Shown here in pieces: positions 19,369-38,308 of a DNA stretch of 64,000 bases (positions are counted from its first letter, which is position 1; each line of letters opens with the position of its first letter). The notes beneath the pieces were generated by a model. That model was not told the origin of the DNA. It did not search any database and saw nothing but the letters and a program-made list of their open reading frames with translations. Source of the stretch: a phage; the NCBI GenBank assembly GCA_014435945.1, contig GCA_014435945.1_4088.1. One strand, 5' to 3'. Both the position numbers and the translations under genes were made by a program.

Positions 19369-19382
19369 GTTTTTAAAAGTAC

Positions 19383-19410
19383 TTGCAAAGTAAGTTTAAA
19401 GGCGTATAAT
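19383..19410 (+). promoter_or_regulatory. sigma70-like promoter (TTGCAA-N16-TATAAT), class I
   Basis: Consensus repeated before many early genes. Confidence 0.6.
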
Positions 19411-19422
19411 ACTTTACATCAG

Positions 19423-19441
19423 GTGGGGAATAGTTCCCCAC
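19423..19441 (+). promoter_or_regulatory. Conserved 5' leader hairpin GTGGGGAA-tag-TTCCCCAC
   Basis: About 12 nt after -10 box; same motif downstream of about 30 promoters. Confidence 0.55.
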
Positions 19442-19461
19442 TATATAAGAGGATTAAAAAA

Positions 19462-19701
19462 ATGGCTAAATCAAAAATGTTCTTAGGTCACAAAAACAAA
19501 ACTCAATGGAATGTAAGCCTTTGGATTAATAACGACGAATCATTATACCGGTTGGCCCAGGACTTTATTGCCGCTAACACTAATCGTAATGATGCGGCCC
19601 GTCATATGATGCTATTTTTAGAACAGACTGGACAAGATAAAACGCCGGACGGCTTTAAGTATAGCACTACTGCGATCCGTGCGGCGATGGTTGGAATGTA
19701 A
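19462..19701 (+). CDS. hypothetical protein; paralog of 21854-22093
   Basis: Start moved to ATG 19462 (MAKSKMF); shared C-term TPDGFKYSTTAIRAAMVGM. Confidence 0.6.
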   Translation: MAKSKMFLGHKNKTQWNVSLWINNDESLYRLAQDFIAANTNRNDAARHMMLFLEQTGQDKTPDGFKYSTTAIRAAMVGM

Positions 19702-19784
19702 TAGAATATATTAAAAGTACTATTGCACGGTGATAGTACTTTATAATAGTGTTTTATTCATACACCAACGATAAGGGTAACAGC

Positions 19785-20051
19785 ATGAATATTATATATT
19801 TTGCGACGCGTGAACAAGCTCGGATCGCCGCACGCCAGGACGGGGCGACGTTTAAAGATATGGGCGTACAATCGGAACGTGGTAAACGTTGGGCCATTGT
19901 AAAGCGTAGTACCGCCAGATCATTACAGTACTGGTTAGCGGCCTTAAAAAGACCCGATAGTGTATCGCGACGAGTGGTAGAAATAAAGCTCGACCGAAAG
20001 GGCAACCGCGTGACCGTGTACCGTACTAAAAAGATTGCAGTACTTGAATAA
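19785..20051 (+). CDS. hypothetical protein; paralog of 32976-33380
   Basis: Start moved to ATG 19785 (track start is GTG); shared FATREQARI and DRKGNRVTVY. Confidence 0.58.
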   Translation: MNIIYFATREQARIAARQDGATFKDMGVQSERGKRWAIVKRSTARSLQYWLAALKRPDSVSRRVVEIKLDRKGNRVTVYRTKKIAVLE

Positions 20052-20058
20052 AAAGTAC

Positions 20059-20086
20059 TTGCAAACTAAGTTTAAAAGCGTATAAT
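20059..20086 (+). promoter_or_regulatory. sigma70-like promoter, class I
   Basis: TTGCAA 20059-20064, TATAAT 20081-20086. Confidence 0.6.
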
Positions 20087-20100
20087 GTTTTACATCGAGA

Positions 20101-20117
20101 GCGGGAATAGTTCCCGC
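20101..20117 (+). promoter_or_regulatory. Conserved 5' leader hairpin GCGGGAA-tag-TTCCCGC
   Basis: Inverted repeat read directly. Confidence 0.55.
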
Positions 20118-20138
20118 CTATAACCTGGAGTAATAAAA

Positions 20139-20369
20139 ATGACTAATATGTATATGACTGAAGTTAAAACCGTAAAAGATACTACCACTAATAAAACTAC
20201 TTACTTACAGCGGATCTGTGGTGTATGGCAACGTATCAGAAAATCAAAGTACTTTAAATTAACATCATATGCAAACCGTTCGGATTCATTCAGTACTGAA
20301 ATAAAAGGTAATAAAGTACACCAATACGGCACTTATTATTATTATAGCCTGGACGCGATTGCAGTATAA
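20139..20369 (+). CDS. hypothetical protein
   Basis: 76 aa ORF after promoter and hairpin. Confidence 0.55.
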   Translation: MTNMYMTEVKTVKDTTTNKTTYLQRICGVWQRIRKSKYFKLTSYANRSDSFSTEIKGNKVHQYGTYYYYSLDAIAV

Positions 20370-20654
20370 GCAGTTTACAAATCTTTACAATTGCCAGTAT
20401 TGACTTATTTTGTCAGTACTGGCATAATGTATTCATTGGCAGATAAGCCGTAGCCCATAGGGTGCGGAAGTGTATCTATAGAAAAAGTAGTTTAGTACAG
20501 TTACAATTGTGCACCCGGTGGGTTAGCTGTTGTCATGGGGTATATTATACCAGTACTGGATAGTGCTGTCAATACTTTTTTTACTATTCAGTACTGAAAA
20601 ACTATTTGATAAAAAGTACTTGCAAACTATGTTTAAAGGCGTATAATGTTTTAC

Positions 20655-20730
20655 ATCAGGACGGGGAACGAAATAAGTAACTTCCCGTTAAGTAGCCCAG
20701 GAGTAAGGCACACGAAAAACTCCCCTGATA
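20655..20730 (+). ncRNA. Conserved ~75-nt structured leader element, copy 1 of 3
   Basis: ggacggggaacg...aagtag...cgaaaaactcccctgat recurs at 24012-24090 and 31788-31870. Confidence 0.35.
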
Positions 20731-20797
20731 AAATAGTTTGACAATTGTTTTTAAAAGCGTATAATACTTACATAAACTACTGAATGAGGGTTACAAA

Positions 20798-35821: not shown

Positions 35822-35910
35822 AAGTATTTGACAAAGTATATTAGTACTGTATAATAGTTTACATCAAGGGGAGAATAGTTCTCCCCACACCAATAAAAGG
35901 AAACAAAATT

Positions 35911-36183
35911 ATGTCCAGCTACTCCGCTACTATGATCATTAAAGATATGAACGGTAATCCTACTTCTGCTGGTGGATCATTTGGAAACATTAATTTAGAT
36001 GGTCGGTTATCCATGCAATCAGCCATCGATGCAGCGAAAGAAGTTTTTAAGAATGAATGTACTGTTAGTAAGCTGGATTATATGGGATTCGCTATCGAGA
36101 AAACTAATCGTTTTGTGAACTACAAAAATCCACTGATGATTGATACTAACCTGAAAGCTAACGAAGTGGAATACTTATTATGA
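35911..36183 (+). CDS. hypothetical protein
   Basis: 90 aa; promoter and hairpin upstream. Confidence 0.6.
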   Translation: MSSYSATMIIKDMNGNPTSAGGSFGNINLDGRLSMQSAIDAAKEVFKNECTVSKLDYMGFAIEKTNRFVNYKNPLMIDTNLKANEVEYLL

Positions 36184-36371
36184 CAGTTGAAGAAGTTAAA
36201 AAAGTACTGGCAGTACTACGCTATCATAATCATTGCAAGGTGAAGAATGATCCTGATTATCTCGATTCATCCCTGGAAGAGGATACACTACAAGCAATAA
36301 GCCATATGCAAAAAATGCTTAAGCGTATGACCGAAAAGAATAGGCCGGACTATATCGGAAATAAAATTTAA
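36180..36371 (+). CDS. hypothetical protein
   Basis: 63 aa; ATGA overlap. Confidence 0.5.
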   Translation: MTVEEVKKVLAVLRYHNHCKVKNDPDYLDSSLEEDTLQAISHMQKMLKRMTEKNRPDYIGNKI

Positions 36372-36458
36372 AAAGTACTTGCATTGTAGTTAGATTAACG
36401 TATAATGTTTTATATCGAGAGGGGGAAATGGTTTCCCCTCAAGTCCAGGAGATACACA

Positions 36459-36722
36459 ATGAACACTATCGAAATCACTATCAATGCACACGTATACGAC
36501 AACGTAGTACTGCAAACTACTATGACCGCCAATGATACCAGTACTTTGCGGAATACTGTTATTAGTGCTGTATGTGCCGCTATCGGTGATGTCGCCCTGG
36601 AAAATGCAAAACACGTAAACGATGGTTTCACTATGTGCAAACGTGATAACGCAAAACATATCATCGTGGAAGGTTACGGCGGTGTAGAATTTAATGTTTA
36701 TATGAAAAAAGTACTTGCATAA
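36459..36722 (+). CDS. hypothetical protein
   Basis: Start moved to ATG 36459 (MNTIEITINAHVY). Confidence 0.55.
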   Translation: MNTIEITINAHVYDNVVLQTTMTANDTSTLRNTVISAVCAAIGDVALENAKHVNDGFTMCKRDNAKHIIVEGYGGVEFNVYMKKVLA

Positions 36723-36789
36723 TAACTAAAACAAAGTATAATGTTTTGCATAGGGGGAGATATCCTCCCCCACTAAAAGGAGTAATAAA

Positions 36790-37014
36790 ATGGCTAACTT
36801 TGATGAACTGATGCGGGAAGTAGCTAACCTGGCAGAAGAGAAGAAATCATTCGATTCTATCTATAACACCGCTCACCGTGATTCAGTACTGGCATGTAAC
36901 CAGGATCAAAAAGATGAACTAATCGCCACCTATCATGAAGCATGGAAGTACTACCGACAATGGGAGAAAGAAGAAAGTGAGTCTACCATTGACGGCCTCA
37001 ATAATCTAATCTAA
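36790..37014 (+). CDS. hypothetical protein
   Basis: 74 aa; hairpin GGGGGAGATATCCTCCCCC upstream. Confidence 0.58.
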   Translation: MANFDELMREVANLAEEKKSFDSIYNTAHRDSVLACNQDQKDELIATYHEAWKYYRQWEKEESESTIDGLNNLI

Positions 37015-37090
37015 AAGTTTTATTTCAGTACTATTGACATAGCTTGATAGTACTGATGTAATAACTTTACTAACTACAAGGGGAAACATA

Positions 37091-37348
37091 ATGGATCAAT
37101 TCACACAATATCGGGTAAATCCTCAAGCTATGGCCTACGTAGAAGACCATAAAACGTTACCAGTACTGCAACCAGTTAAAGGCCATATCTATCGTGCAAT
37201 GTCGTGGTGTACGGCCCAGGATGGCTATAAAACCGTAGCCGTGGGTATGTATTGCGGTAATGGTGAATGGTTTGATCCAAATAATCCGGTAGCCATTGAC
37301 AGTACTGAAAAAATGAAATGGGCCGACTACATCGAAGATATTTCATAA
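37091..37348 (+). CDS. hypothetical protein
   Basis: 85 aa; class III promoter (tattgacatagcttgatagtactgatgtaat) upstream. Confidence 0.58.
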   Translation: MDQFTQYRVNPQAMAYVEDHKTLPVLQPVKGHIYRAMSWCTAQDGYKTVAVGMYCGNGEWFDPNNPVAIDSTEKMKWADYIEDIS

Positions 37349-37438
37349 AAACTATTTGACAGTACTAACCAGTAATGTATAATGTTTTACATAGAGCGGG
37401 GGAATAGTTCTCCCGCCAATAGTTTGGAGTAAAACATT

Positions 37439-37639
37439 ATGTCTATCGCTATCGCCCTGGTTGAAGTACTGAAAGAAGCTAAAGCCAACCTTATCGATGT
37501 ACAGATTAAGGAATTGCAAAACGGCTTAATCGGCTGTACTTGTACCGCTGGTGGAGCGGCAGACTATCGAGAACACGAATCACTCGAATCACTGGTTCGG
37601 TATCTTACCATGATCGTTGATGATTGGAGAATCATCTAA
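37439..37639 (+). CDS. hypothetical protein
   Basis: 66 aa; promoter and hairpin upstream. Confidence 0.55.
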   Translation: MSIAIALVEVLKEAKANLIDVQIKELQNGLIGCTCTAGGAADYREHESLESLVRYLTMIVDDWRII

Positions 37640-37656
37640 CAAAAAAGAATAAAAAA

Positions 37657-37682
37657 AGGGATTGACTCAGGTCAGTCCCTTT
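37657..37682 (+). terminator. Terminator-like hairpin GGGATTGAC-tcag-GTCAGTCCC (repeat module)
   Basis: Copy of 31633 element. Confidence 0.45.
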
Positions 37683-37886
37683 GCTATTATATACGCATAG
37701 ACAAAAACTAGCCCACAGGGTGCATAAGTGTATCCAAAATATATAGTTAATAACGGTGAGTAACTATCTGCTGGTGGAGTGAAAACTATTAATAAAAAAA
37801 AGTATTGACAAAGTATATCAGTACTGCAATAATGTATCTCGTAGGGCGGCAATGGTGCGACGGCCCACAAAGTTAGGAGATTCAAA

Positions 37887-38219
37887 ATGACTACTTCAAT
37901 CGCTATCGTTAAAGCTTTCATCCGTACTAATGTTTCCTCTGTATTCATCGACGGCCTCGACCGTAACGTAGAATACTCAATCATTATCGCACAAACGGCA
38001 AACGGTTCTCGGTACATCCTGAATGATAGTGAAGCAAATCACTACTACTTCACTAAAGCCACTGGCTTTAAACGCATCGATGCTGATGTAGTATACGCTA
38101 AGATGAATAAGCTGGTAGACAAGATTAACGCGAAAGGTACTATCGATTTACAGTACTGGACCGAAACCGATCCAGAATATGGATCTCACCGCTACCTGAA
38201 TCCAGGTATTAAAATGTAA
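37887..38219 (+). CDS. hypothetical protein
   Basis: 110 aa; SD TTAGGAGA. Confidence 0.6.
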   Translation: MTTSIAIVKAFIRTNVSSVFIDGLDRNVEYSIIIAQTANGSRYILNDSEANHYYFTKATGFKRIDADVVYAKMNKLVDKINAKGTIDLQYWTETDPEYGSHRYLNPGIKM

Positions 38220-38308
38220 AAAGTACTTGCATAGTACTTAGATTCATGTATAATGTTTTACATAGAGAGGGGGAAATGGTTCTCCCTCCTAAATTAAGGA
38301 GTTTTATC

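Follow-up and report, generated by a model that had tools for sequence, protein, structure and literature searches.

A promoter-early stem-loop-like cassette with a predicted transcribed hairpin recurs across the terminal repeat of a Rak2-like jumbo coliphage

Introduction

Promoter-early stem-loop (PeSL) cassettes were described in the T4-like phages RB49/phi1, PST/T4 and nt-1/KVP40, where a strong sigma-70 promoter joined to a Gn-loop-Cn stem-loop recurs in hyperplastic regions and mediates modular shuffling (Arbiol et al. 2010, PMC2839356; Comeau et al. 2014, PMC4122927). A Gn-loop-Cn stem-loop taken from one PeSL cut downstream lacZ as strongly as rrnB T1 (PMC2839356). Here we analyze a 64,000-nucleotide stretch of phage DNA (the window; assembly GCA_014435945.1, contig GCA_014435945.1_4088.1) in which a G-rich/C-rich hairpin repeatedly follows early promoters, ahead of the Shine-Dalgarno sequence (SD) and the start codon. 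The feature is a PeSL-like cassette with a hairpin predicted to be transcribed; it falls within the known PeSL concept and is not a new system.

The likeness to PeSLs extends over the whole unit: a repeated intergenic cassette of approximately 90–100 bp, with an AT-rich upstream region, a near-consensus sigma-70 promoter, a Gn-loop-Cn stem-loop, an SD and an ATG. It extends to genomic setting as well, since the cassettes cluster among small ORFans in plastic regions and mark the boundaries of indels and replacements between close relatives. The window comes from a jumbo Rak2-like coliphage, a group that supplies candidates for phage therapy and in which most genes are unannotated. The hairpins are not described in the open-access papers on phAPEC6, CBB, fENko-Kae01, fEgEco12 and rV5, and our search of the open-access literature returned no description of gene expression from Rak2-like terminal repeats.

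Results

A promoter-hairpin cassette recurs between 18.9 and 38.3 kb

A scan for TTGACA/TTGCAA-N16-17-TATAAT with no more than one mismatch located 48–49 near-consensus sigma-70 promoters on the + strand, between 17.6 and 38.3 kb. These match the consensus at 10–12 of 12 positions, follow an AT-rich region and share the layout AAAAAGTAC-TTGCAA/TTGACA-N16-TATAAT, within a common context that runs from AAAAAGTAC through the -35 hexamer, N16 and the -10 hexamer to gttttaCATcaa. Behind 29 of the promoters (18.9–38.3 kb) stands a G-first hairpin of the GGGGA..TCCCC type, with a stem of 7–9 bp (G.U pairs counted) and a loop of 3–5 nt. The stem begins 8–14 nt past the -10 hexamer, most often at 12, and the SD and ATG lie a further 15–25 nt or so beyond the hairpin, with YTAA between hairpin and SD. 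The 5' arms are all purine-only and the 3' arms all pyrimidine-only. An earlier, unaided reading of the DNA (hereafter the original prediction) had reported a G-rich/C-rich inverted repeat at conserved spacing behind about 30 early promoters and before the SD. Our count bears this out, with its stem of 6–8 bp corrected to 7–9 bp; the example hairpins it quoted are those at 21462, 19422 and 25176.

The conserved unit is about 90 bp long and comprises an A-rich/AGTAC upstream element, a sigma-70 promoter, CAT, a G-first stem-loop, YTAA, an SD and an ATG. Its copies are as follows, with loops in lower case.

18921–18979 (+), cassette, TTGCAA-N16-TAGAAT; hairpin 18963–18979, CGGGGG-atacg-CTCCCG
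19383–19442 (+), cassette, promoter and hairpin 19422–19442, GGTGGGGAA-tag-TTCCCCACT
20059–20117 (+), cassette, promoter and hairpin 20101–20117, GCGGGAA-tag-TTCCCGC
21422–21482 (+), cassette, promoter and hairpin 21462–21482, GGCGGGGAG-tgg-TTCCCCGCT
21776–21836 (+), cassette, same sequence as the one at 21422; hairpin 21816–21836
22421–22480 (+), cassette, promoter and hairpin 22461–22480, AGGGAGAA-atgg-TTCTCCCT
22889–22944 (+), cassette, promoter and hairpin 22925–22944, TAGGGGGA-gcgg-TTCCCCTG, two G.U
23206–23265 (+), cassette, promoter and hairpin 23247–23265, AGGGGAAA-cgg-TTTCCCCT
23589–23646 (+), cassette, promoter and hairpin 23626–23646, AGGGGCGAA-tag-TTTGCCCCT
24816–24877 (+), cassette, promoter and hairpin 24856–24877, GAGGGGGAA-acgg-TTCTCCTTC, two G.U
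25136–25195 (+), cassette, promoter and hairpin 25176–25195, GGGGAGAA-atgg-TTCTCCCC
26941–27000 (+), cassette, promoter and hairpin 26981–27000, GGGGAGAA-atga-TTCTCCCC
27170–27227 (+), cassette, promoter and hairpin 27208–27227, AAGGGGAA-aacg-TTCCCCTT; left partner in a cassette-to-cassette recombination
27509–27568 (+), cassette, promoter and hairpin 27549–27568, GGGGAGAA-atga-TTCTCCCC; right partner of the recombination with the 27170 cassette
28101–28160 (+), cassette, promoter and hairpin 28142–28160, AGGGGAAA-tgg-TTTCCCCT
28535–28594 (+), cassette, promoter and hairpin 28575–28594, GGGGAGAG-atga-TTCTCCCC
28808–28867 (+), cassette, promoter and hairpin 28848–28867, GGGGAGAA-aaac-TTCTCCCC
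30651–30708 (+), cassette, promoter and hairpin 30690–30708, AGGGGAA-acatc-TTCCCCT
30923–30982 (+), cassette, promoter and hairpin 30963–30982, GGGGAGAA-atga-TTCTCCCC
31220–31277 (+), cassette, promoter and hairpin 31261–31277, AGGGGAA-tag-TTCCCCT, plus outer GG/CC pairs
32211–32272 (+), cassette, promoter and hairpin 32253–32272, GAGGGGAA-acgg-TTCCCCTC
32482–32542 (+), cassette, promoter and hairpin 32524–32542, GAGGGGAA-tgg-TTCCCCTC
35026–35086 (+), cassette, promoter and hairpin 35067–35086, AGGGGGAA-atgg-TTCTCCCT, G.U
35334–35392 (+), cassette, promoter and hairpin 35374–35392, GGGGAGAA-tag-TTCTCCCC
35828–35886 (+), cassette, promoter and hairpin 35868–35886, GGGGAGAA-tag-TTCTCCCC
36379–36440 (+), cassette, promoter and hairpin 36419–36440, GAGGGGGAA-atgg-TTTCCCCTC, G.U
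36715–36771 (+), cassette, promoter and hairpin 36753–36771, GGGGGAG-atatc-CTCCCCC
37356–37416 (+), cassette, promoter and hairpin 37396–37416, GCGGGGGAA-tag-TTCTCCCGC, G.U
38227–38288 (+), cassette, promoter and hairpin 38267–38288, GAGGGGGAA-atgg-TTCTCCCTC, G.U; the last before the end of the terminal repeat described below

A generic hairpin scan of 19380–38300 (stem at least 7, at least 4 GC, loop 3–5) returned 37 hairpins, 34 of them G-first, compared with a mean of 2.75 (maximum 8) in 100 dinucleotide shuffles, which held 0.60 +/- 0.75 (maximum 3) of the G-first kind. When the scan was widened to the whole 64 kb (loop 3–6), GGGGA..TCCCC hairpins were confined to 18.2–38.3 kb.

Transcription is predicted to start at the A of a conserved CAT located 6–8 nt past the -10 hexamer. 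Leaders are predicted to measure 40–50 nt with the hairpin and 22–37 nt without it. Minimum-free-energy folds of the former are dominated by the hairpin (-11 to -16 kcal/mol) and usually leave the SD unpaired, while leaders lacking the hairpin fold at 0 to -3 kcal/mol. Approximately 10 promoters of the block have such short, hairpin-free leaders (20738, 25376, 25668, 29121, 30234, 31872, 32912, 37034). The same scan applied to 50 kb of RB49 found GGGGATC-n-GATCCCC hairpins at -23 to -5 from the end of the -10 hexamer or overlapping it (-15..+6). The RB49 hairpin thus precedes the transcription start, in agreement with the published descriptions, whereas that of the window always lies 8–14 nt past the -10. 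From these positions the window hairpin is predicted to be transcribed, and the RB49 hairpin, seated in the promoter spacer, to be absent from its own transcript.

The cassette layout also bears on gene annotation. At 22469 and 27557 the hairpin loop supplies an ATG (..GAGAAATGG/ATGA..) that shares the reading frame of the gene behind it, with no stop between, so that a mechanical open reading frame (ORF) call begins inside the hairpin, 10 codons early. Loop ATGs are therefore a risk to start-codon annotation, and knowledge of the layout improves start calls. A mini-ORF encoded by the hairpin itself (GGAG plus loop ATG) was considered and rejected: only some loops contain an ATG, the spacing is 3–4 nt, and frames and stops are inconsistent.

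Pairing in the stem appears to be selected in the sense RNA

We pooled promoter-proximal hairpins from the window, vB_Ec-M-J, fEgEco12, E9.1, Klebsiella fENko-Kae01, Salmonella 7t3 and the Vequintavirinae phage A7_1, which yielded 45 distinct arm pairs; CMSTMSU (L005), whose record is marked UNVERIFIED and annotated in fragments, was not used. Because a MAFFT alignment of whole leaders (A1) lost the register of the arms, pairs were counted on a second alignment (A2) in which arms were taken symmetrically about the hairpin centre and loops were replaced by a constant CACA linker. On A2, pairing holds in 88.6% of cells, versus 76.6% in shuffles (0/500). Double-sided changes occur at 8 of 9 stem pairs (59 cells, 22.9 expected), and the covariation score is 0.474, compared with 0.231 in shuffles and no more than 0.226 when the register is slid by 1–3 columns. 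The fourth pair from the loop illustrates the exchange, being A-U in 8 cases, G.U in 6 and G-C in 30. The original prediction had held that stems vary while keeping complementarity, and had proposed weighing covariation against strict palindrome conservation in aligned leaders; the former holds, and the outcome of the latter favors RNA structure.

Further observations distinguish the two strands. Under a Watson-Crick-only detection rule, symmetric for G.T and A.C, stem core positions 2–7 contain 12 G.U and 2 A.C. Sense RNA is more stable than antisense in 23 of the 29 window hairpins (mean -13.0 versus -11.8 kcal/mol; Wilcoxon p=0.0017); its advantage is at least 2.8 kcal/mol in 9 of them, and antisense is never ahead by more than 0.6. 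The loop varies both in length (3, 4 or 5 nt) and in sequence, with 15 different minimal loops (TAG, ATGG, TGG, CGG, ATGA, ACATC and others), while the GGGGA/UCCCC core close to it is conserved, with A9, A10, G5 and G6 at 90% or above. In the distant Erwinia Eneladusvirus most left-end promoters are hairpin-free; three carry a hairpin at the same place (d=9–10) with unrelated stems, for example GGGTAAGC/GCTTACCC. Taken together, the covariation, the preference for G.U over A.C, the stability of the sense strand, the variable loops and the Erwinia stems point to a selected RNA structure in the sense transcript. The sequence data thus support pairing that is under selection and fit a structure in sense-strand RNA.

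The inverted repeat might instead act in DNA, either as an operator at +5 to +28 or as a cruciform or single-stranded recombination site, cut by endonuclease VII or used in the manner of integron attC. Its perfect or near-perfect symmetry and fixed place relative to the promoter would suit such a role, as would the block boundaries within cassettes that we describe below. We nonetheless regard it as scarcely credible: half-sites are spaced by 3, 4 or 5 nt and co-vary in sequence, G.T is tolerated where A.C is not, the sense strand folds better, 8-bp stems are poor at cruciform extrusion, and the one informative chimeric cassette crosses over in the -10 region, outside the hairpin. The palindromic operator for coordinate repression offered by the original prediction is disfavored in particular, and we rejected it on the 1–2 bp differences in half-site spacing between copies and the co-variation of half-sites at 8/9 positions.

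The cassettes populate a direct terminal repeat

Positions 19380–27000 of the window are 92–97% identical to Asteriusvirus jumbo myophages of E. coli (CMSTMSU, vB_Ec-M-J, fEgEco12, SP27, phAPEC6; Rak2-like), and by this measure the window derives from an Asteriusvirus (Rak2-like) jumbo coliphage. The direct terminal repeat (DTR) of fEgEco12 is 20,993 bp long and was confirmed by restriction digestion (PMC13070987), and the vB_Ec-M-J record annotates a DTR at 1–21525 (21,525 bp) that matches the window DNA. In BLAST alignments, position 1 of both genomes falls at window position 17312, and the right end projects from both to approximately 39135.

17312–39135 (+), DTR equivalent, about 21.8 kb, from BLAST against annotated relatives; all promoter-hairpin cassettes lie inside it

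Since the matching DNA is the annotated DTR of these relatives, the early promoter block corresponds to the terminal repeat. Its interior consists of small + strand genes separated by gaps of about 85 nt; past its end, genes are closely packed and for the most part overlap. A cassette stands at the head of approximately 60% of the roughly 48 small DTR genes, whose products include small zinc-finger and kinase-like proteins. By analogy with T5, SPO1 and phage CBB, for the last of which a similar early-gene suggestion has been made (PMC5259590), the DTR genes probably serve host takeover in the immediate-early phase.

The left end of the DTR (17312–18920, about 1.6 kb) is mostly non-coding and without convincing genes. 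Several promoter-like sites, distributed over both strands, occur in it together with scattered hairpins at 17460, 17890 and 18263, and it may be a physical terminus or packaging signal region. The motif had been noted in the non-coding stretch at 17–19 kb, and we find it there at 18263 and 18963, with a weaker version at 17460.

18263–18281 (strand unassigned), family-like hairpin GTGGGGA-tagtt-TCCCCGC in the non-coding left end of the DTR

Two of the small DTR genes, at 19462–19701 and 21854–22093, are paralogous, and their products start MAKSKMFLGHKNKTQWNVSLWINN and MASTKTYNGHKNKTHWNVSLWINN; the homologue in A7_1 is 91% identical in nucleotide sequence to the 21854–22093 copy.

Cassettes coincide with recombination boundaries

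Compared with vB_Ec-M-J and fEgEco12, collinear blocks of the DTR are broken by gene-sized indels (for example 21487–21768 and 27217–27499). Against vB_Ec-M-J, 11 of 13 block boundaries fall within cassettes, which make up 18.6% of the region. Two cases expose the exchange at the level of single cassettes. The gene at 21503–21769 lies between two identical cassettes (21422 and 21776), and vB_Ec-M-J lacks the gene and has a single cassette at that place. The vB_Ec-M-J cassette at 9890 is a chimera that joins the left part of window cassette 27170 to the right part of 27509 and changes over at the -10. On this sole informative chimera we rejected a crossover at the hairpin loop, such as was reported for one RB49 mini-circle.

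A single-cassette query matched 9–16 places in most Asteriusvirus genomes and 26–30 where the record holds both DTR copies. It also matched the DTR of Klebsiella fENko-Kae01, Salmonella 7t3 and coliphages of 142–151 kb that include A7_1. The latter, classified as Vequintavirinae, has three hairpin cassettes with the same spacing and several small genes 70–91% identical to window DTR genes, in a different order. With indels and replacements ending in cassettes, and with cassettes shared with unrelated coliphages, they behave like the 'mobile regulatory cassettes' of the PeSL literature. Judged from these comparisons, the cassettes act as portable homology through which small early genes are shuffled, both inside the lineage and between unrelated ones. 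Three points are thus added to the original prediction: the block is a direct terminal repeat, the unit is a recombining cassette of the PeSL type, and cassettes occur in unrelated coliphages.

A putative 5'-proximal stem-loop in early mRNA

We favor, at a probability of about one half, the interpretation that the hairpin is a protective or insulating stem-loop near the 5' end of early mRNA, by analogy with known leader hairpins. Host RNA polymerase would start at the A of CAT, 8 nt past the -10, and the hairpin would span about +2/+6 to +22/+28 of each immediate-early mRNA, leaving the SD unpaired. The stem-loop may then lower 5'-end-dependent decay (entry of RppH or RNase E) and would provide each shuffled gene with an identical, autonomous leader fold, whatever its neighbors. 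Once read-through transcripts are processed, it may also double as a 3' barrier for the upstream cistron. A 5'-terminal stabilizing stem-loop was among the three options originally proposed, and it fits best; the RNA structure itself is upheld by covariation, G.U pairs and the sense-strand fold, while the 5-nt tail predicted for the commonest form is borderline for protection.

Several considerations weigh against this protective role. The transcription start is a prediction, and the unpaired 5' tail of 1–5 nt in the folds assumes a start at the A of CAT; the commonest form, AUCAA-GGGG, leaves 5 unpaired nt with a start at A8 and 7 with a start at A6. Classical 5'-terminal protection reportedly needs about 2–4 unpaired nt or fewer, a figure attributed to the 1992 work of Emory, Bouvet and Belasco. 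RNase E, when scanning, readily bypasses simple orthogonal stem-loops (PMC9943677). The approximately 10 block promoters without a hairpin indicate that it is not essential for early expression, and the GGGGATC..GATCCCC hairpins of RB49, which are outside their own transcript, suggest a role in read-through RNA or in DNA. The statistics on pairing overcount independent events, the copies being paralogues, and use a register picked to maximize pairing; the excess of G.U could also stem in part from a transcription-associated C-to-T bias on the non-template strand.

Read-through RNA brings in a different set of functions, in line with how PeSLs were first interpreted. Across some 48 tandem promoters, the hairpin might attenuate or terminate transcription arriving from upstream and so limit its accumulation, or form a repetitive extragenic palindrome (REP)-like barrier to 3' exonucleases for the upstream cistron once the RNA is processed. 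That the tested PeSL stem-loop matched rrnB T1 in reducing lacZ (PMC2839356) fits such a function, as do the RB49 hairpins, whose seat in the promoter spacer means that they appear in read-through RNA only. No other terminator separates most of the DTR genes, and the same type of stem followed by a T-run forms a terminator at 33403, where the motif had been predicted to be part of one. Two hairpins are relevant here.

33403–33421 (+), same stem type as a canonical intrinsic terminator, GGCGGGA-tcagt-TCCCGCC followed by TTTTTT
22113–22132 (+), family hairpin GGCGGGGA-atgg-TTCCCGCC without a consensus promoter, followed by TTTATT; upstream of an ORF starting near 22153

Yet none of the 29 cassette hairpins is followed by a T-run, their 3' tails reading ACTAA or GGTAA, and on these sequence grounds we rejected the intrinsic terminator. 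A terminator scan flagged 22113, 22725, 23904, 24635 and 33403, and 0 of the 29 promoter-proximal hairpins. The canonical T-run terminators at 22725, 23904, 24635 and 33403 are separate from the cassettes, which suggests that such terminators are used where needed. A terminator at +30 would moreover abort the cassette's own transcript, and action on read-through RNA needs no fixed distance from the -10. We therefore consider this function unlikely.

The uniformity of the hairpins could alternatively mark them as a shared tag, through which a dedicated phage or host factor controls the immediate-early regulon jointly. Candidate factors are an RNA-binding protein that represses or activates translation, a shut-off endonuclease resembling T4 RegB, or an antiterminator acting as lambda N does on boxB. 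About 30 transcripts share a hairpin of equal size and position, its loop-proximal core shows conservation (A9, A10, G5 and G6), stems contain GGAG, and small zinc-finger and kinase-like proteins are among the DTR products. Against these stand the loop, conserved in neither length nor sequence, and the unrelated stems of the Erwinia relative. There is also no boxA-like partner motif and no Rfam family match: an Rfam 15 search of 17000–39500 gave three sub-threshold chance matches only, none at a hairpin. The sequence pointed to no candidate binding protein. Joint control by such a factor is accordingly quite improbable. The regulator or antiterminator binding site of the original prediction fares no better with respect to its loop, whose sequence is not conserved. 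A lambda-type nut site was rejected, given the lack of a conserved loop, of boxA and of any conserved flanking motif beyond YTAA. In its broadest form, a regulon-wide 5' tag by which a phage RNA-binding protein or nuclease jointly switches all terminal-repeat immediate-early mRNAs off (or on), or which blocks a component of host decay or defense, is likewise doubtful. If true, the tag would move with its promoter as a plug-in unit, and cassette recombination would bring any captured gene, including one acquired from an unrelated phage family, under a common post-transcriptional program.

The final alternative concerns the 5' arm alone. This purine-rich tract (GGGGAGAA, about +6 to +13) might be selected as an initial transcribed sequence that aids escape from a strong promoter, with the 3' arm serving to mask an SD-like sequence; T5 N25 offers the comparison for promoter escape. 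The idea accounts for the invariable G-first polarity and for the purine-only 5' and pyrimidine-only 3' arms, and several loops do place an AUG 3–4 nt past GGAG, such that the arm, if left unmasked, could provide a decoy start. It is very unlikely in our estimation, however, as the hairpin-free leaders of equally strong promoters are not G-rich and the RB49 hairpins are G-first even though they lie upstream of the start.

Additional repeated elements in the window

The palindrome AGTACT occurs 270 times in the window, versus 20.5 +/- 4.3 expected (13-fold), in coding and non-coding DNA alike. Its density is 4.5/kb at 1–17311, 6.4/kb in the DTR and 2.1/kb at 39136–64000. It adjoins the -35 (AAAAGTACTTGCAA) and is present in many promoter spacers. 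All Rak2-like loci (L001, L002, L004–L007, L009), including the distant Erwinia Eneladusvirus, carry it at 4.7–6.1/kb, while it occurs at 0.23/kb in A7_1 and 0 times in 50 kb of RB49. No paper on its abundance was found in the open-access literature.

A second repeated element is present in nine copies, six on the + strand (20400, 27979, 29644, 31637, 34903, 37662) and three on the - strand (22855, 20572, 18686). A promoter of its own (TTGACT-N17-TATTAT or CATAAT) opens each copy; then come roughly 30 nt of leader and the core A(G/A)CCCAyrGGGTGC..GTATCTAT, behind which no ORF follows immediately. Conserved copies of this core lie at 3233, 6388, 13784 and 15855 in the Erwinia phage L009, and Rfam yielded no match; possible identities of the element are a small RNA and a protein-binding site. 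At four places (27972–27999, 31630–31657, 34896–34923 and 37655–37682), the -35 (TTGACT) of this second class lies within a 12-bp hairpin, AAAGGGATTGAC-tccg-GTCAGTCCCTTT, behind which comes GCTATTAT. Overlapping the -35 as they do, the hairpins at 27972, 31630, 34896 and 37655 form a composite laid out like the classical RB49-type PeSL. The promoters at 20400 (+) and 20572 (-) are convergent, about 170 bp apart, and each drives a copy of the element, so that the two transcripts would overlap as antisense partners.

At 20620–20740 and 31756–31875, paralogous promoters precede a structured, ORF-free stretch of about 95 nt, after which another promoter follows. The stretch has an AUCAGG...CCUGAU closing helix (-19 to -21 kcal/mol), is approximately 90% conserved in A7_1 (L003 14228–14314) and may be a small RNA.

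Discussion

Our analysis supplies a regulatory grammar for about 50 predicted immediate-early genes of a jumbo phage group and gives evidence for selection on a hairpin in leader RNA. The promoter-hairpin-SD unit emerges as a recombination module that shuffles small host-takeover genes among these phages and with Vequintavirinae. Read from their sequence, the cassettes are also predicted to constitute a set of compact, strong and naturally insulated expression units.

Among known leader structures, the 5' hairpins of ompA and papA and the T7 gene 10 leader (GGGAGACCACAACGGUUUCCC) are 5'-terminal stabilizing stem-loops. The window hairpins resemble them in being short, GC-rich and placed at the start of the 5' untranslated region with a free SD behind, and in conserving structure over sequence. 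The G-first GGGAGA..UUUCCC of T7 gene 10 is especially close to window hairpins such as AGGGGAAAcggTTTCCCCT. They differ from these leaders in the predicted unpaired 5' tail of 1–5 nt, which in the commonest form, at 5 nt, is longer than optimal for protection.

As a genomic arrangement, the DTR recalls the host-takeover module in the SPO1 terminal redundancy and the pre-early genes in the T5 terminal repeat. All comprise numerous small genes of unknown function that lie inside a long terminal repeat, point inward from the genome end and, with few or no exceptions, have a strong host-type promoter and an SD to themselves. The proteins of SPO1 and T5 are unrelated to those of the window, and we know of no conserved leader hairpin described for either module. 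With the nut site and boxB of lambda, the window shares a small hairpin in early transcripts at a fixed position downstream of early promoters. boxB, however, requires a conserved GNRA-like pentaloop and boxA, whereas the window loops vary and boxA is absent, and the window holds some 30 copies, each 20–25 nt ahead of its own gene.

PeSLs thus remain the closest parallel. BLAST detected no similarity between the window cassette and the RB49 cassettes. Apart from position relative to the start site, the window hairpins differ from PeSLs in having no T-run, and the cassettes are confined to the DTR of a Rak2-like jumbo phage rather than residing in Straboviridae. These differences extend the PeSL concept beyond T4-like phages, and a stem-loop that is predicted to lie within the transcript makes the function of the PeSL stem-loop directly testable.

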